Assembly (NCBI GenBank): GCA_021513695.1
Contig: CP084166.1
Location: forward strand, 1,568,001 to 1,632,000
Direction of reading: 5' to 3'
Source of the DNA: Candidatus Heimdallarchaeum aukensis
GTDB taxonomy: Archaea > Asgardarchaeota > Heimdallarchaeia > Heimdallarchaeales > Heimdallarchaeaceae
Length of the DNA: 64,000 nt
Within the stretch, counting starts at the first letter, position 1; every line of letters begins with the position of its first letter. The notes under the pieces were generated by a model that was not told the DNA's origin, searched no databases, and saw nothing but the letters and a program-made list of their open reading frames with translations. The translations under genes were made by a program, and so were the position numbers. This document shows, piece by piece, positions 18,835 to 34,803 of this stretch.

Positions 18835-19452
18835 GTGAGTAAAATGTTTGGAAACTTTATGAGATGGTTATTAGGAACTCAAAAATCAAGTAGAGACCAT
18901 ATAGTAAACCTTAAACTAACTATTCGCAGACTAGAAAGAGCTCAAAGGAAACTGGAGAGAGATGAATCAAGAATACAACTAAAAATGCGAACAGCTATTC
19001 AGCGTGGTGATTTAGAAGGTGCCCGTCTTTATGCTACAGATATTGTTCGTTCTCGTAAGTGGGTTTTAGGTTACCAGCGTTTAGTTTCTCGTATTAATGG
19101 TCTTATTTTTAAACTAGAACGAGCTGATTCTGCTGCTAACTTGGCAGCTGAAATGCATTCTATTGCAGGAGCTCTTCGACAAGCTAACGCTCAATTAAAT
19201 GTTCCTGATTTAGATCATGTTATTCAAGACATGGAACGTAGTATTGATGGAATTGAGGATTCAACTGAAACAATTGAAGATGGAATTGATGATCTTCTTA
19301 TTGCTGATACCGACCCAGCTGAAGTCGATAGGTTAATTGACCAAACAGCTACAGAGATGGGTGTTAGTGTAGGAGGAGAACTCCCTTCAGTAAGCGCTGT
19401 TGCAACAGACGATCTCGAGGAAGAGATTCAAAAATTAAGGAAAAAAGAGTAA
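18835..19452 (+). CDS. ESCRT-III, Vps2/24/46 (CHMP1-3)-like Snf7-family protein
   Basis: By-eye alignment to CHMP2: ARLYATDIVRSRKWV vs VRIMAKDLVRTRRYV, and MGVSVGGELPSVS vs LGLSLTDELSNLPS. The C-terminal MIM-like DLEEEIQKLRKKE matches DLEERLKNLRRD. Confidence 0.85.
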   Translation: MSKMFGNFMRWLLGTQKSSRDHIVNLKLTIRRLERAQRKLERDESRIQLKMRTAIQRGDLEGARLYATDIVRSRKWVLGYQRLVSRINGLIFKLERADSAANLAAEMHSIAGALRQANAQLNVPDLDHVIQDMERSIDGIEDSTETIEDGIDDLLIADTDPAEVDRLIDQTATEMGVSVGGELPSVSAVATDDLEEEIQKLRKKE

Positions 19453-20254: not shown

Positions 20255-21400
20255 TTGAGCGCGCAAGGACTGATTGAACACGCACGTAAATTTGCAAAAA
20301 AAGCTTATGAACTTGATAAGGCAAAACAATACAATGAGGCAATACCACTTTATCTCGACGCTGCAGAAGCTCTAATGAAAGCAATAAAATTTGAAAGAAA
20401 TCCACAAGTGGGAAAGACATTAAAGAAAAAAGCAGAGATGTACATTGAACGAGCAAAAGATCTAAAAGAAATTATTGAGAAAAAAGCTGAAAAGGGGGCA
20501 GAAACAGGGTCAGACGAAGAATCTGATAAATTAGAAGGAGCAATTAGCGATATCATAGTTACAGAAAAGCCATCAGTTACTTTGGATGATATTGCAGGAC
20601 TAGAAGAAGCAAAACGGAATCTTCGAGAAGCAATAGTGTTACCTCTTGTAAGACCAGACTTATTTAGTGGTGCAAGAAGACCATGGAAAGGGATTTTACT
20701 TTTTGGCCCCCCAGGATGTGGAAAAACTCTTTTAGCAAAAGCAACAGCTGCAGAAGTAGAAGCTACGTTTTTTAATGTTAGTGCGTCCGCGGTTATATCC
20801 AAATGGTTAGGAGAATCTGAAAAATTAGTTAATACATTATTTAAAATTGCTCGTGAAAGGCAACCAAGTATAATTTTCATAGATGAAGTAGATGCTCTTA
20901 CCGGAGCACGTGGTGGCGAGCATGATGCTATGCGCAGAGTTAAAACTGAATTATTAACTTCTATGGATGGTTTATCTAGCTCTGCTCAAGATCGTCTTGT
21001 AGTTATTGGGGCTACTAACCTTCCTGAGTCTATTGATGGAGCTTTTCGCCGTCGTTTTGAGCGTCGTATTTACATTAAGCTTCCAGATTTTGAAGCGCGT
21101 AAAGCTATCTTTCAACTAAATGTCAAAGGAGTGGACTTAGCTCCCGATGTTGATTTTGAATCTTTAGCAGAGATTACAGAAGGTTATTCTGGAGCAGATA
21201 TTGCTATGGTTTGTCGCGATGCTATTATGACTCCTATTCGTGAACTTGATTTATCAGGAGACATTCATGACCCCAATATTAAAGCCAGACCAGTTACACA
21301 AAAAGATTTTCTTGAGTCTATTCAGTCAGTTAATCCTTCTGTAAGTGCAGAAGAAATCGAGAAATATGAGAAATGGAATGAAGAATTTGGTTCAGCGTAA
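20255..21400 (+). CDS. vps4: Vps4-like AAA+ ATPase with N-terminal MIT domain
   Basis: MIT-like helices AKKAYELDKAKQYNEAIPLYLDAAEALMKAIKFERNP. Walker A GPPGCGKT and Walker B IIFIDEVD. The C-terminal helix EEIEKYEKWNEEFG matches the Vps4 pattern. TTG start preceded by GAGAGGT. Confidence 0.95.
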   Translation: MSAQGLIEHARKFAKKAYELDKAKQYNEAIPLYLDAAEALMKAIKFERNPQVGKTLKKKAEMYIERAKDLKEIIEKKAEKGAETGSDEESDKLEGAISDIIVTEKPSVTLDDIAGLEEAKRNLREAIVLPLVRPDLFSGARRPWKGILLFGPPGCGKTLLAKATAAEVEATFFNVSASAVISKWLGESEKLVNTLFKIARERQPSIIFIDEVDALTGARGGEHDAMRRVKTELLTSMDGLSSSAQDRLVVIGATNLPESIDGAFRRRFERRIYIKLPDFEARKAIFQLNVKGVDLAPDVDFESLAEITEGYSGADIAMVCRDAIMTPIRELDLSGDIHDPNIKARPVTQKDFLESIQSVNPSVSAEEIEKYEKWNEEFGSA

Positions 21401-21412
21401 AAGGGTGTTTTT

Positions 21413-21433
21413 ATGATTTACCTTTTTACGTAA
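21413..21433. repeat. Left terminal inverted repeat of element B
   Basis: ATGATTTACCTTTTTACGTAA. The reverse complement of 23311-23331 is ATGATTTACTATTTTACATAA. Confidence 0.7.
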
Positions 21434-21707
21434 GTTTTTCGCACTCGGTCTTTCAAGGGAGAAAACAGGAGTTTCATCACTTGATAACTCAACCACAACA
21501 TACAATGAAAGGAAACGTGGTTAAGACAGACGTCATACACGAATCGTGGGAATCATAAAGAAGGAAAAGAAAAAAGTAAGAAAGGAGAAAAGAAAGGAGG
21601 TTATCTCCTTCTTTATTCTACTTTCTTTTCTTTCCTTCACTCCACGAGAGACGAAAAAACAAACAAATAATCCTCTAACAAGAGAGAATGTAAGTTTATA
21701 TTTTCAT
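21413..21707 (-). ncRNA. Candidate omega-RNA/reRNA scaffold of element B (decayed copy)
   Basis: The non-coding stretch between the tnpB stop and the element end shares conserved blocks with copy A. The CTTAACC/GGTTGAG helix at 21488-94/21519-25 stays paired only in the tnpB-sense RNA, through a U-G wobble. Confidence 0.3.
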
Positions 21708-23161
21708 CTACTGGGGCTGCAACCAATGGCTGAGCCCTTGGCAAACAGTGAAATGAGTGAGACTAAATTTACGACCAGTGAGTAGATCAGTAATAGTTGT
21801 TGCACGGGGGCGGAAAAGAGAACTAAGGAGCAGACGAGCGATATTCATTGCTCCTGTTAGATCAGAGTGGAAGGTGTAATTGCAAGAGGGACAATAAACT
21901 AACCCTCTAACGGGGCGGGTAACTTTTTTTCCGCAACGGGCACAGTGAGATGATGTTCCTCTTTCCTCTATCGTCAGAATTCGGTGAGAGGGAAAACCTC
22001 TAAGTATTAGTGCACGACGGATAAAAGAAAGAACAAGAGCATAGTTCCACTGGTGAAGTTTTCTTCGTGACTTGCGATTAGTTACTCCCTTATTTTTTTC
22101 TCGTCGAATGTATTTAGGATAACCTATAACAACGAAAAGATTATAGATCCGAGCATAAACCTCTATTGTCCACACGATAGCACTTACAAATTGATTGATA
22201 TACGCTCGTCTGACGTTTCTATACCTCCGACGGAGACGTTTGAGAAAACGGTAAACTTGGTGTTTTTTACCCGATTGGTCGTTTAAAGCTGCTTTCCTCT
22301 GAAGACGGGAAAGTTTGAGTTTATATCGATGATTAACTTTATTCCACTGTTTGGTATACTAGAACTTTATTTCTTTACTTGTTACCTTCTTTTTCGGGGT
22401 CAGTAGCACTTCTACCGCAGGAATGTTTATCCCTAGATCTATTCCCAGCACAGCTGGGGGAAGAAAAGAAGAGTCAGAAGAAAGATTATCTCCCTGAAGG
22501 AAAGAAGAAGGAAGAACTTTTGAATGAAAATATATCCACCATTCACGTGTAGAACGTTTGTATCTTATTTCTAAACTTTTTACTCTTTCTTTAATTCTTT
22601 TTGATGAAACTCGCTCATCTCTAAAGGTAACCACAATCGCTGATGAAAACGTGTTTTTCTTTTCCACCTATCTAACGAGTCTCGTATTCCTACCCACCAA
22701 CGAGAAAGAGTGTTATTCTTATCTTTTGGTAGATGGACGAGGATGAACCTTTTTTTATTAATTAATTGTCTTCTTGCTCTCTTTCTTGGAGGACGAGTAT
22801 TGTTAGGTCTATATCCTTGCTCATATAGTTGCACAGCTATATCTCTACATTCTTGAAACTCATCGTGAGAACAATAGGGAAACATTTTCTTCATATCGTG
22901 AGGAACAGTCGTTCTTCTTTCTTCCTCTTTTTTTACTCTCGAGGTCGTTAATGTCAATTCGTCTAATTTTCCTTTATGTACTTTTATTTTCCCTTCTTTT
23001 GCTTTAATACCTATTTTTTTTCTGTTATGGTGTATAATTCTCACATACTTTTCTATTATTCTAGTATCTCTCCCCGTTATTCTCCTTAACTTTTCTTTTT
23101 TTCTCGTCGTCAATACTTCATTCTTCACTCTCACCTTTAACGTTTTGACGACGTCCTCCAT
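21708..23161 (-). pseudogene. tnpB: tnpB pseudogene (frameshift plus premature stop)
   Basis: Three track ORFs (22580-23161, 22359-22667, 21708-22175) together reproduce the 484-aa copy-A protein. There is an indel near 22585-22595 relative to copy A. TGG became TAG at 22359-22361 (KFWYTKQ in A, KF*YTKQ here). Confidence 0.85.
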
Positions 23162-23310
23162 CCTTTTTTTCTCCTCTTATTTTACTCTCTCTTTTTTTCT
23201 ATTTTTTTCTCTTCTTTTACTTCTTCTCTTCCTCATTATACTTTTTTTCCCTATAAAAAGTCCTTTCTTTTCTTTTTTTCTCATTATTCTTCCTCAATTT
23301 TTATATAAAG

Positions 23311-23331
23311 TTATGTAAAATAGTAAATCAT
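23311..23331. repeat. Right terminal inverted repeat of element B
   Basis: See 21413-21433. The terminal ..TCAT abuts a G, so the first ATG of the next ORF (23330) is built from the element end. Confidence 0.7.
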
Positions 23332-24130
23332 GGCTACAATGGAAAAACAAAAAGATAATGAATTTGAGCAAATTGATCTTGAAAAATTGAAAGAAGAAAA
23401 GAAAATATCAGAAGATAAGCTTAAGCTTATTGAAGCCAGTATTAAGGGATTAAAAGTTTCAGAAGAAGAACTGAAGTCCACGAAACCTATTGTTAGAGAA
23501 GAAGCAAGATTAGAACTAACAGAAGACACAAAGACGAAGCTAATTAAAGAATTTGAGCAAAGTTTACCTGATTGGGTTAACAAGCCTTGGATGTATGTCA
23601 CCCCAAAAAAGGCAAATCAAGTTGAGTCTTGGTTAGACAGTTGGTCATCAGTCATGCTTGATTATACAAAGAAATTTGTTATTCATATTGTTAATGTCAA
23701 TTCTCTTAGAGAAACTTATCCTTTTTGTAATAAGAAAATAAGAAAAGAACTTACCATCGATCAAATTCGTGATATCATCGATTTTCTTGAAACAAAGGGT
23801 TTTGCTCTTTGGATAAATGATAGGACAAAATTCTTTGAGAAACTTTTTGCAAAGATACTTGGAAAACCTTTAACAAAAAAGATCCGTGCAAAGATAGAAT
23901 GGAAAACAAAAGAAGAATTTGCTGAAGATTTACTTAAATGGATGATTGAAACCGGTAGAGTAGTTGAAGTTCACTCTTTATATGATTTAACAAAATATGA
24001 ACAACCCTGGTCTTCTTTACCTTCAGATGATTTAATCCATGTATGCAATTTACTCGTAGAAAAAGGTTCTGCTAGATGGTTAAATAGAGAAAGAACTATA
24101 ATTTCCTTTGAAGCAACAAAGGTATTCTAA
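23330..24130 (+). CDS. Vps25-like ESCRT-II subunit (two winged-helix domains) with a charged N-terminal extension
   Basis: The C-terminal 170 aa align by eye with human EAP20/Vps25: VESWLDSWSSVMLDYTKKF vs QLAAWCSLVLSFCRLH, DIIDFLETKGFALWIND vs VLEELRKKGNLEWLDK, and WKTKEEFAEDLLKWMIETGRVVEVHSLYDL vs WRRPEEWGKLIYQWVSRSGQNNSVFTLYEL. The native start may be the ATG at 23339. Confidence 0.7.
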   Translation: MATMEKQKDNEFEQIDLEKLKEEKKISEDKLKLIEASIKGLKVSEEELKSTKPIVREEARLELTEDTKTKLIKEFEQSLPDWVNKPWMYVTPKKANQVESWLDSWSSVMLDYTKKFVIHIVNVNSLRETYPFCNKKIRKELTIDQIRDIIDFLETKGFALWINDRTKFFEKLFAKILGKPLTKKIRAKIEWKTKEEFAEDLLKWMIETGRVVEVHSLYDLTKYEQPWSSLPSDDLIHVCNLLVEKGSARWLNRERTIISFEATKVF

Positions 24131-32912: not shown

Positions 32913-32935
32913 ATGATTTACTTTTTTCCGTAAGT
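32913..32935. repeat. Left terminal inverted repeat of element A
   Basis: See the mobile_element entry; 20/23 match to the inverted right end. Confidence 0.75.
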
Positions 32936-33173
32936 TTTTCGCACTCGGTCTTTCAAGAGAGAAAAACAATAAAATAGCTTAATCGCTTGGTAACTCAACC
33001 TAAACATACAATGAATGGGAGTGGTTGAGACAGACATCATACACGAATCGTGGGAATCATAAAGAAGAAAGGAAGAAAAAAGTAAAACCTTTTTTCTTTT
33101 TTCCTTCACTCCACGAGAGACAAAAAAGAAAGACTAACTCTAACACAAGAGGATAGAATTAGTTTCTTTTCGT
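32913..33173 (-). ncRNA. Candidate omega-RNA/reRNA scaffold of element A
   Basis: A 261-nt non-coding stretch between the tnpB stop and the element end. Its blocks are conserved with copy B (CGCACTCGGTCTTTCAAG, CATACACGAATCGTGGGAATCATAAAGAAG, CCTTCACTCCACGAGAGA). Conserved hairpins: CTCAACC/GGTTGAG (32994-33000 / 33023-33029) and a purine/pyrimidine hairpin at ~33066-33106. Confidence 0.4.
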
Positions 33174-34628
33174 CTACTGGGGCTGCAACCAATGGCTGAG
33201 CCCTCGGCAAACAGTGAAATGAGTGAGACTGAATTTCTGACCAGTGAGGTAATCAGTAATGGTGTTACATCGAGGACGGAAAAGATATCCAAGGAACTTA
33301 CGAGCGATATTCATTCCCCTTGTTAGATCAGAATGAAAAGTGTAGTTACAGGAAGAACAATGAACTAACCCTCTAACGGGACGGGAAACTTTCCTCCCGC
33401 AACGAGCACAGTGAGAAGATGTCCCTCTTTCCTCTATTGTTAATATTCGGTGAGATTCAAAGCCTCGAAGTATAAGTGCCCGACGGAGAAGAGAGAGAAC
33501 AAGAGAAAAATTCCACTGATGAAGTTTTCTGCGAAACTTACGATTACTTTTTTCTTTTTCTTTTCCTTCTCGAACATGTTTGGGGTAACCTACAACAACG
33601 AAAAGGTCATACACTTGTGCATAACTCTCTATCGTCTGCACAACATCGCTTATAAATTGGTGAATATACGCGCGTTTAACGTTTCTATACCTCCGACGAA
33701 GAAGACCAAGAAAACGGTAAACTTGGTGCTTTTTACCTAACTGGTCGTTTAAAGCTGCTTTCCTCTGAAGACGGGAAAGTTTGAGTTTATATCTATGATT
33801 GATTCTATTCCACTGTTTAGTATACCAGAATTTTATCTCTTTTTTTGTTAACTTCTTTTTAGGAGTCAGTAACACTCCTGCAGCAGGAATGTTTATCCCT
33901 AGATCTATTCCCAGCACAGCTGGGGGAAGAGAAGAAGAATTATCTCCTTGACTTGTGAGATAAAAGGAAGAAGGAGGAAGAACTTTTAATTGGAAATACA
34001 CCCACCATTCACGTGTAGAACGTTTGTATCTTAGTTCTAGACTTTTCACCCTCCCTTTCTTTAACTCTTTCTGGTGAAAATCGCTCATCTCTAAAGGTAA
34101 CCACAACTTCTGATGATAAGGTGTCTTTCTCTTCCAGGTATCTAACGAGTCTCTTATTCCTACCCACCAACGAGTAAGTGTATTATTCTTCTCTTTTGGT
34201 AGATGGACAAGAATGAACCTTTTTCCATTAATTAATTGCCTTCTTGCTCTCTTTATTGGAGGACGAGTAGGACGGGGTCTATACCCTTGTTCATATAATT
34301 GTACAGCTATATCTCTACACTCTTGGAATTCATTGTGAGAACAATAGGGAAACATTTTCTTCAAGTCGTGAGGAACAGTCTTTCTCCTCTCTTCTTCTTT
34401 TACTCTTGAAGTAGTCAGTGTCAACTCGTCTAATTTTCCTCTATGTACTCTTATTTTCCCTTTTTTTGTTCTTATACTTATTTTTCTTCTGTTGTGGTGT
34501 ATAATTCTCACATATTTTTCTATTATTCTCGTGTCTCTCCCCGTTATTCTCCTTAATCTTTCCTTTTTTCTCGTCGTCAATACCTCATTCTTTATTCTCA
34601 CTTTTAATGTTTTGACGACGTCCTCCAT
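33174..34628 (-). CDS. tnpB: TnpB-like RNA-guided endonuclease family protein (OrfB, RuvC + zinc ribbon)
   Basis: 484 aa. RuvC-I is LGIDLGINIP. The zinc ribbon is CARCGRKVSRPVRGLVHCSSCNYTFHSD. RuvC-III is HSDLTRGMNIA. The N-terminal KTLKVRIKN... is typical of TnpB. Confidence 0.9.
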   Translation of the reverse strand: MEDVVKTLKVRIKNEVLTTRKKERLRRITGRDTRIIEKYVRIIHHNRRKISIRTKKGKIRVHRGKLDELTLTTSRVKEEERRKTVPHDLKKMFPYCSHNEFQECRDIAVQLYEQGYRPRPTRPPIKRARRQLINGKRFILVHLPKEKNNTLTRWWVGIRDSLDTWKRKTPYHQKLWLPLEMSDFHQKELKKGRVKSLELRYKRSTREWWVYFQLKVLPPSSFYLTSQGDNSSSLPPAVLGIDLGINIPAAGVLLTPKKKLTKKEIKFWYTKQWNRINHRYKLKLSRLQRKAALNDQLGKKHQVYRFLGLLRRRYRNVKRAYIHQFISDVVQTIESYAQVYDLFVVVGYPKHVREGKEKEKSNRKFRRKLHQWNFSLVLSLLRRALILRGFESHRILTIEERGTSSHCARCGRKVSRPVRGLVHCSSCNYTFHSDLTRGMNIARKFLGYLFRPRCNTITDYLTGQKFSLTHFTVCRGLSHWLQPQ

Positions 34629-34780
34629 CTTTCTTTCCTCTTTTCTTATTCTAAACTTTTTTCTTCTCCTTTAATTATACTTTTTTTCCCTATAAAAATT
34701 CCTCACTTTTTCTTCTCTCCCTCCCTCTTCCTTCCTTCTTTCCTTTCTTTTTTCGTTGCACTCTTCCTCAATTTTTATAA

Positions 34781-34803
34781 ATTTACGTAAAAAAGTAAGT
34801 CAT
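34781..34803. repeat. Right terminal inverted repeat of element A
   Basis: ATTTACGTAAAAAAGTAAGTCAT, the inverted match to 32913-32935. Confidence 0.75.

Follow-up and report, generated by a model that had tools for sequence, protein, structure and literature searches.

The DNA studied here is a 64-kb window from Candidatus Heimdallarchaeum aukensis, an Asgard archaeon of the Heimdallarchaeaceae; "the window" denotes the whole stretch that was analyzed, and positions given without an accession or locus name are counted within it. Its minus strand carries two copies, A and B, of a repeated element, neither of which encloses any gene besides tnpB. Copy A is complete and measures 1891 bp (32913..34803). 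In the orientation of tnpB, its left end lies at 34803 and its right end at 32913; these limits were assigned because homology to copy B and to approximately 20 other copies ends exactly there. Read along the minus strand, copy A consists of a 23-bp end, a purine-rich spacer containing a TTTTTATA box, a 484-aa open reading frame (ORF), and an untranslated tail of 261 nt. The left-end terminal inverted repeat (TIR) has the sequence ATGACTTACTTTTTTACGTAAAT on the tnpB strand (34781..34803, 23 bp), and the right-end TIR (32913..32935) closes with ...ACTTACGGAAAAAAGTAAATCAT on the same strand. The TTTTTATA box (34691..34698), some 105 nt in from the left end and some 70 nt ahead of the ATG, is a candidate archaeal TATA element of the tnpB promoter; it was found at a comparable position in 13 of 14 copies. 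The tnpB gene (33174..34628) is intact, and a candidate guide-RNA (omega or reRNA) scaffold occupies 32913..33262, overlapping the last ~90 nt of tnpB, spanning the whole 3' untranslated region and stopping at the right-end boundary. No tRNAs were found within the element, and no Rfam family matched there, the scaffold region included. Copy B (21413..23331, 1919 bp) is decayed, its tnpB being broken into three ORF fragments (21708-22175, 22359-22667 and 22580-23161). Its left-end TIR (23308..23331) is entered from the flank as ...GCC/ATG and its right-end TIR (21413..21436) is left as ...AAATCAT/A, where the slash marks the element boundary.

An earlier note on this DNA had described both copies as bounded by true inverted repeats of 21-23 bp, with 20 of 23 and 18 of 21 positions matching, rather than by the hairpins of IS200/IS605 elements, and had placed the end of the homology between the copies exactly at these repeats. 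Indeed, the degenerate TIR pattern ATGAYTTACTTTTTTMCGTAARTT was found at four sites in the window (21413, 23331 on the minus strand, 32913, and 34803 on the minus strand), which are the four ends of copies A and B; there were no further matches in the window, and none in shuffled sequence. Direct comparison of the arms returned the same 20/23 for copy A and 18/21 for copy B. When copy A with 300-bp flanks was compared to the window by blastn, the sole match was copy B, aligned from the first to the last TIR base at 80.5% identity. Eight ends were also folded as single-stranded DNA. They gave weak, copy-specific structures (-0.3 to -5.6 kcal/mol), with z-scores of -0.8 to +0.9 in the copy-A family; seven of the eight were near 0, the exception (z = -1.96) being the right end of an unrelated family (L015, described below). 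Because the ends lack single-strand hairpins, we judge from their sequence that the element is not of the IS200/IS605 type. On all of these points the earlier description was borne out.

Further copies of the element were retrieved from the chromosome of Ca. H. endolithica (CP084167.1; 14 copies), from fragments on three metagenome contigs (L020-L022) and from three further insertions at loci L133-138. About 20 copies share the ends defined above: the TIRs are conserved, the ends do not lie elsewhere, and at the 14 loci of CP084167.1, as in the window, the TIRs mark precisely where homology ceases. Downstream of tnpB, every copy closes its right end with ...AAAAAGTAAATCAT; at the left end, every copy begins with ATG-N6-(T-run)-(A/G)CGTAA. 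The outermost base of the element already belongs to the repeat, and over the first 18 positions the arms agree at 14-17. Two subfamilies are apparent. In one, the arms carry TTTTTTACGTAA; in the other, TTTTTGCG is present in both arms, and the repeat there extends to ~30 bp (25/30 matching). The arms thus change jointly between subfamilies, TTTTTTACG being replaced by TTTTTGCG at both ends, and they therefore evolve as expected for TIRs that bind a protein. TTTWCG-like motifs recur at ~10-bp spacing inside the arms, as judged by eye only. A second family (L015, with a second copy at L019), whose TnpB is 43% identical, has TIR interiors that are unrelated (ATGGTTGTTTTTCCCCAC...) and the same termini, C/ATG...CAT/G. 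One chimeric copy was also encountered (L003, CP084167.1:3318853-3326307), whose left end belongs to subfamily 1 (TTTTTTACGTAA) and whose right end belongs to subfamily 2 (TTCGCAAAAAG); its existence implies either recombination between subfamilies or a single enzyme that accepts both types of end.

All relatives of the copy-A TnpB come from Asgard archaea. Those in Heimdallarchaeaceae are 84-94% identical, and many such copies reside in the closed genomes of Ca. H. endolithica and Ca. H. aukensis. Identity falls to 36-43% in other Heimdall lineages and to ~33% in Thor- and Loki-type genomes. The clade is small: only 102 clusters reached E<=1e-30 when 1.84 billion cluster representatives were searched exhaustively with a profile. 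Within a single genome, some copies are 96-97% identical, and the nearest relative of copy A (94%) occupies a different locus; therefore, the family has moved recently.

Does the element leave a recognizable mark on its target? The earlier note had detected no target-site duplication (TSD), a claim that comparison of ~20 independent copies overturned. AT is found at both junctions in all copies, within a CATG context (C/ATG...CAT/G). Position -1, before the left end, is C in 19 of 20 copies (P ~2e-14; copy A has A instead), and position +1, after the right end, is G in 13 of 18 (P ~2e-7). On the left, T was never seen at position -2 (0/20, P = 2.7e-4), where C, A and G all occur, whereas its right-end equivalent is always T (aaTCAT). 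The empty site was then reconstructed by fusing the flanks directly or with a spacer of 1, 2 or 3 nt. Only the 2-nt spacer (+2 nt) yielded long junction-spanning ORFs, at three loci: L005 (142+269 codons), L007 (554+264) and L010 (109+479). The L005 reconstruction puts a Lactamase_B domain, which precedes the junction, in one frame with the RMMBL domain that follows. The reconstructed L010, an ABC transporter gene, aligns without gaps to uninterrupted orthologues (...EEFYDDMLKKS-H-EFHDRV... vs. ...EKS-Q-EFHDRV...); at the DNA level, the core of the orthologue reads AGCCAAGAA vs. AGCCATGAG in the reconstruction (also given as AAGAGCCAAGAATTC and AAGAGCCATGAGTTT, respectively). From the rescue of these ORFs at +2 nt and the gap-free orthologue, it follows that the empty site is C-AT-G and the occupied site C-AT-G...C-AT-G. 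On sequence, a palindromic CATG would permit three parsings: a 4-bp duplication, a 2-bp duplication or shared core, or blunt insertion of a TG...CA element between A and T. The first is disfavored, as the outer bases are mismatched at 6 of 38 ends and the inner AT is intact at 76 of 76 positions (Fisher P = 0.001).

The right end appears to have a second function. The last ~350 nt of 16 copies were aligned, and RNAalifold produced a consensus fold of ten helices and 77 pairs. In this fold, 98.7% of the cells are paired, vs. 38-51% when the partners are slid by 1-3 columns, and compensatory (two-sided) changes occur in nine pairs, vs. 1-7 in the slid controls. Two long-range helices (helices 2 and 5) pair the right TIR (ACUUAC... 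and ...GUAAAU) with upstream segments. The right end would thus serve both as the transposon end and as the 3' end of the predicted RNA scaffold, and this dual role accounts for its invariance while the left arm varies at positions 4-9. The candidate scaffold, of ~350 nt, is drawn as running into the right end, with its 5' limit left approximate; the predicted RNA scaffold would end in ...GUAAAUCAU, and the guide, predicted at about 16-20 nt, would be read from the flank, which for copy A lies beyond 32913.

The protein encoded by copy A was examined with respect to its nuclease function. Its sole Pfam match is PF07282, the zinc-ribbon TNB domain (27.5 bits vs. a cut-off of 26.3); the NCBIfam model guided_TnpB aligns to residues 145-444 (E = 8e-21) with 74.7 bits, under its cut-off of 100. 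A clade alignment of 37 sequences served as input to AlphaFold2, which returned a model with a mean predicted local distance difference test score (pLDDT) of 84. The best solved structures matched by this model in Foldseek are Cas12f, ISFba1 TnpB and ISDra2 TnpB (E 1e-14 to 1e-10), and a profile search of the PDB found Cas12f at E = 5.5e-21. The earlier note had recognized RuvC-I (GIDLG), RuvC-III (HSD) and a zinc ribbon. These assignments stand: D242 of GIDLG (33903-33905) and D434 of HSD/NAD (33327-33329) are invariant across the clade, and the CxxC...CxxC zinc ribbon is present (C407/C410/C424/C427). A feature absent from that description is the loss of the canonical RuvC-II glutamate. At its position, the whole clade has glycine (Gly347, in VVVGYPK; 33588-33590), which the profile alignment pairs with the catalytic Glu of Cas12f. 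Seven residues ahead of the first zinc-ribbon cysteine, where ordinary TnpBs have Pro, lies an invariant glutamate, Glu400 (33429-33431), which has apparently taken over the role of the canonical residue. The same arrangement, i.e., glycine at the canonical position and an alternative glutamate on the next strand, ahead of the zinc ribbon, typifies the groups with a rearranged RuvC-II (RIIr; PMC10691335). Such rearranged sites (the RIIr groups, or TnpBs with a "C-terminally shifted glutamate") are considered active, and shifted glutamates are found in thousands of prokaryotic TnpBs (PMC10691335; bioRxiv 10.1101/2023.08.09.552727).

Among intact copies, the pairwise ratio of nonsynonymous to synonymous substitution rates (dN/dS) is 0.11-0.14 (about 0.12), with dS of 0.23-0.76; therefore, TnpB was kept functional while the copies diverged. 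By its residues and its modeled fold, the protein is assigned to the TnpB/Cas12f superfamily of RNA-guided RuvC nucleases and, within it, to the relocated-glutamate class. The conjecture of the earlier note that copy A may encode an active nuclease gains support from D242, E400 and D434, from the dN/dS values and from the predicted fold, and we consider it probably right. N-terminal additions are present in distant members that the profile search recovered: P0155 (852 aa) has a MazE/AbrB-like one, and P0167 (736 aa) a winged helix of the MarR/TrmB type. These resemble the antitoxin- or regulator-linked TnpBs of the literature.

With moderate confidence, we interpret the element as a non-autonomous insertion sequence of Heimdallarchaeia in which a promoter, tnpB and a guide-RNA gene lie between true TIRs of ~23 bp. 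This confidence attaches to the explanation as a whole, namely a double-stranded DNA (dsDNA) element moved in trans, most likely by IS607-like exchange across AT. The first step of this reasoning had been made in the earlier note and is supported by the single ORF found in the element: since no transposase is encoded, the element must be moved in trans. As dsDNA, it would enter CATG-like sites such that each junction carries an identical AT (C-AT-[G...C]-AT-G), and an enzyme encoded elsewhere would do the moving.

As for the chemistry, our tentative choice, the likeliest of those considered, is conservative strand exchange across the 2-bp AT core by way of an excised circle, as IS607-type serine transposases perform with GG. 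Those enzymes exchange strands over a dinucleotide that is identical at both termini and in the target, and the junction of the excised circle is the crossover site; in the model for IS607, a filament assembled on one end takes hold of a second end that is itself unbound, and a matching dinucleotide is all that the target must supply (PMC6188088, PMC4058570). In the present element, the joined ends of an excised circle would form the palindrome GTAAATC-AT-GATTTAC, within a predicted junction ...AAAAAGTAAATC-AT-GATTTACTTTTT.... Two 5'-truncated copies, L013 (3011) and L014 (3001), are pertinent here. They have intact right ends and the usual C/G flanks, and they start exactly at internal tnpB ATGs; the chance of both doing so is ~1e-4, for two cases only. 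They look as if transposition had used a pseudo-left end with little in common with the true one except AT-G, and they hint at a mechanism in which the right end is the anchor. The non-T asymmetry at position -2, the truncated copies and the shared C-AT-G core all fit conservative recombination across a 2-bp core. TnpB, loaded with its ~350-nt RNA, would then cleave the CATG site, whether resealed or not yet occupied, and homologous repair would restore the element. The target-adjacent motif (TAM) of the nuclease probably contains CAT preceded by non-T (VCAT), and would spare the element's own right end (TCAT). This prediction is made by analogy to the IS607 element ISXfa1, the TnpB of which recognizes GGG and rejects the CGG located ahead of its own guide (bioRxiv 10.1101/2023.08.09.552727).

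Several considerations weigh against this interpretation. Neither within nor beside any copy did we detect a gene for a serine recombinase, Y1, DDE or Cas1 enzyme, whether in the window, at the 14 genomic loci, at ~10 metagenomic loci of the copy-A family or among the neighbors of three distant relatives, a search that covered <10% of one genome. The analogy to IS607 fails on two defining features, i.e., the terminal inverted repeats and an AT rather than a GG core, and a combination of TIRs and 2-bp duplication is equally the classical DDE signature. Sequence alone does not separate a 2-bp duplication or shared core from blunt insertion of a TG...CA element between A and T. The VCAT motif rests on 20 flanks, and the RNA covariation stems from essentially two subfamilies and hence from few independent events.

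The search for a mobilizing enzyme can be detailed as follows. There was no partner in 84 kb of H. endolithica flanks, and no transposase among the neighbors of P0029, P0038 and P0110 or of 17 metagenomic loci. A scan of the window and all loci for serine-recombinase and HUH motifs found nothing near the copy-A family; the HUH scan did detect one Y1 gene, beside an unrelated TnpB (L047), which serves as a positive control. In viral contigs, there were 0 matches to the 19-nt right-end TIR and no relatives by protein profile. The 16-nt sequence GTAAATCATGATTTAC, predicted for the circle junction, had 30 matches in the same kind of contigs, none of which reaches into the TIR; these were set aside as chance or unrelated operators. 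A fusion of TnpB to a transposase was likewise rejected, as the long relatives carry only MazE/AbrB or winged-helix additions.

Other genes in the surroundings of these TnpBs deserve mention. Decayed IS481/IS3-like elements, with a 141-aa helix-turn-helix (HTH) ORF and rve fragments, occur in the same Heimdallarchaeaceae populations (L020:1752-2207, L099:3715-4740 and L101:600-1640), and the one in L020 adjoins a truncated tnpB copy. That tnpB copy ends abruptly at ...TATCAT, and the HTH ORF comes next; as the TGT...ACA repeats of the IS481/IS3-like element are unrelated to the TnpB TIRs, we rejected it as a partner. In the Thor/Loki-type relatives, an ORF of 1400-1800 aa lies directly upstream of tnpB and divergent from it at eight loci (L018, L023-L026, L028, L031, L042; e.g. 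L024:190-5676, minus strand). It has no sequence match in Pfam, NCBIfam or the PDB; it may be a conserved partner or cargo, or simply mark the preferred neighborhood of that TnpB group. The right-end region of these relatives (L024:7740-7780, with equivalents in L026, L028, L023, L031 and L018) contains ...CTTACAGTTGAGGTTCACTCACCAAAATGTAAGA..., including GTTCACTCA. A 9-mer like GTTCACTCA is also present within the TIR of the IS481/IS3-like elements (TGTTCACTCAAT) on Heimdall contigs, which may be coincidence.

Which other enzymes could account for the element? A DDE transposase in trans (IS630/Tc1-mariner-like, IS30-like or other) is the second most likely answer and a serious rival, although we doubt it. 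It would act by cut-and-paste or copy-out/paste-in with a 2-nt stagger, AT would be a true duplication, and TnpB would be a passenger, as Fanzors are in the DNA transposons of eukaryotes. Besides the signature already named (here, ~23-bp TIRs with a 2-bp flanking repeat), the alternative parsing of the site would give the element common TG...CA termini; moreover, IS630-linked TnpBs with symmetrical ends are on record (PMC10691335), and Fanzor2s occur in non-autonomous elements with TIRs and TSDs that have no known partners (bioRxiv 10.1101/2023.08.09.552727). However, the repeat here is AT, vs. the TA that is universal in IS630/Tc1/mariner, and the terminal base of the element mimics the target flank such that the junctions rebuild CATG; this is expected of recombination between like sites and not of DDE insertion. 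The truncated copies, too, take internal ATGs that lack a TIR as left ends. Excision by a DDE enzyme leaves a break rather than a resealed site for the TnpB guide, yet tnpB is under strong purifying selection. Finally, no DDE gene with these TIRs was seen, the sole DDE element encountered being the IS481/IS3-like one (L020, L099, L101) with its unrelated ends.

A rather unlikely alternative is an Asgard-specific class of transposon moved by an enzyme outside the known TnpB partners (Y1, IS607 serine TnpA and IS630 DDE); in its most radical form, this reading has TnpB and its RNA help to cut the CATG-bounded ends. If this were true, the TIR-bounded, TnpB-only architecture of Fanzors would already have been present in the archaeal lineage closest to eukaryotes. 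We also think it unlikely that the partner is the Asgard homologue of Cas1 (aCas1), or some other unrecognized integrase or transposase, and that the family is a TnpB-only derivative of an Asgard-specific transposon class. The small size of the clade and its confinement to Asgard archaea speak for such a partner, and each TnpB subfamily has its own TIR sequence, such that partners must have co-diversified. The Thor/Loki-type sister group (~33% identity) carries near its right end the GTTCACTCA motif described for aCas1-associated Asgard TnpBs, for which aCas1 has been proposed as the transposase (PMC10691335). Yet the copy-A family is without this motif, no recognizable Cas1-like gene was seen beside any relative examined, and the conserved neighbor in the sister group is the 1400-1800-aa protein, which has no recognizable domain. 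Further, known integrations by Cas1 and casposases duplicate at least 14 bp, not 2 bp.

Movement as an ordinary IS200/IS605 (IS1341-group) element, i.e., as single-stranded DNA handled by a Y1 TnpA in trans, is very improbable. That model, which involves no duplication, makes CAT the left target and TAM and has the right end cleaved at TCAT. If an element inserts 3' of a constant ...CAT, the expected empty site is again the +2-nt one, which keeps one copy of a left flank ending in (V)CAT; tnpB-only elements of the IS1341 type are common; and the asymmetry at position -2 (V at the left end, T at the right) resembles the difference between target and right-end cleavage site in IS200/IS605. The model leaves unexplained the preference for G after the right end (13/18), and neither end has stable or conserved hairpins. 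The similarity of the ends is inverted, not direct, the left T-run corresponding to the right A-run. No Y1 gene was present in the copies or flanks examined, although the motif scan was able to detect one elsewhere. Hardly credible, lastly, is the absence of any separate transposase, with TnpB and its RNA or an unrelated host activity mobilizing the element, or with copies that are no longer mobile: no protein other than TnpB co-diversifies with each TIR family, the RNA scaffold includes the right TIR, tnpB is under selection in TnpB-only copies and no partner was found, but the partner is judged missing from <10% of one genome, the copies sit at unrelated loci with a precise site signature and up to 96-97% identity and are hence mobile, and we know of no precedent for integration catalyzed by TnpB.

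Some neighboring features of the window remain to be recorded. Copy B sits between two genes on the plus strand, at 20255-21400 and 23330-24130. The former encodes a 381-aa protein that, by eye only, resembles an AAA ATPase with an MIT domain (Vps4/CdvC-like). The annotated ATG start of the latter is formed by the terminal AT of copy B and the flanking G; its true start is probably the next ATG, 9 nt downstream. The only Rfam match in the window at the gathering score is a SNORD36-like C/D-box RNA at 19239-19313 on the plus strand (31.9 bits, E = 0.38), which may be an archaeal C/D-box small RNA.

TnpB is among the most abundant of prokaryotic genes; to our knowledge, however, its role has been worked out only for elements mobilized by IS605 (Y1) or IS607 (serine) enzymes, and with either partner the donor site is resealed. 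The present family offers a third, well-defined TnpB architecture, in which true TIRs are combined with a palindromic CATG site that shares an AT and with a right end that would double as RNA scaffold; closed Heimdallarchaeum genomes contain many copies of it. It makes addressable which enzyme moves TnpB-only elements, whether the predicted VCAT motif and the site of the transposase co-evolve, and whether a RuvC site with a relocated glutamate is active. It also provides a compact archaeal pair of nuclease and RNA with a short predicted motif.

How does the element compare with known systems? It shares with the IS1341 group (tnpB-only IS200/IS605 elements) a single tnpB with a guide RNA, the lack of a transposase and the presence of several copies per genome; unlike them, it has true TIRs and a symmetrical CATG site instead of subterminal hairpins, ends that are incompatible with single-strand recognition by Y1. 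In the IS630-linked TnpBs (the "DDE-6" branch; PMC10691335), TnpB likewise lies within inverted-repeat ends and a 2-bp flanking repeat. Our family differs from these in that it has no DDE or HTH gene, has AT rather than TA at 100% of its ends, is confined to an Asgard-specific clade and was not found in the viral contigs searched. TnpBs with symmetrical ends and Asgard-specific TnpB groups have been reported already (PMC10691335). Among the latter are the aCas1-associated TnpBs (Cas1H-Asgard-1/2; PMC10691335), which resemble the present family in being a lineage restricted to Asgard archaea. By sequence comparison, the copy-A family is placed as sister to the Asgard TnpB groups that carry GTTCACTCA, with which it shares a conserved N-terminal region; it differs in lacking both GTTCACTCA and a Cas1 neighbor and in that its predicted guide lies outside the element, not in an internal hypervariable region.

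The earlier note had also drawn a parallel to the Fanzors of eukaryotes. Fanzor1 and Fanzor2 do present a TnpB-type nuclease alone in an element bounded by TIRs and TSDs, with no known autonomous partner, and their RuvC-II glutamate is shifted to just ahead of the zinc ribbon. The present host is a prokaryote, however, RuvC-I reads DLG and not DPG, and the shifted glutamate is, as described above, widespread in prokaryotic TnpBs. By neither fold nor profile is the copy-A TnpB nearer to Fanzor than to bacterial TnpB or Cas12f: the mimivirus Fanzor2 structure (9b0l) ranks 19th by fold and, with a profile E of 1e-10, falls behind Cas12f and below bacterial TnpB as well. Published phylogenies, moreover, reportedly derive Fanzors from cyanobacterial IS607 TnpBs. 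The parallel is therefore one of analogy; we would limit it to architecture, and it supports no special link to eukaryotes.

The comparison with IS607 elements (IS607, ISXfa1, ISC1926) has two sides. In canonical IS607, the termini are unrelated, the repeats lie subterminally and the core is GG (PMC6188088), vs. the ~23-bp terminal inverted repeats and the AT within CATG found here; there is also no tnpA (serine recombinase) in or beside any copy or relative examined, and the TnpB has its relocated RuvC-II glutamate. Because it fails defining features of each, the element stands outside IS200/IS605, IS607 and IS630 alike. In common with IS607 elements, on the other hand, it has a tnpB with a guide RNA that would extend across the right end, one and the same dinucleotide at the two termini and in the target before insertion, an empty site that keeps one such dinucleotide, and little need for other target sequence. 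The ISXfa1 motif GGG is one base off the right-end CGG, in parallel to VCAT vs. TCAT here, and capture of an unbound partner by one strongly bound end fits the truncated copies. By this analogy, the element functionally most resembles a tnpB-only derivative of an IS607-like system.

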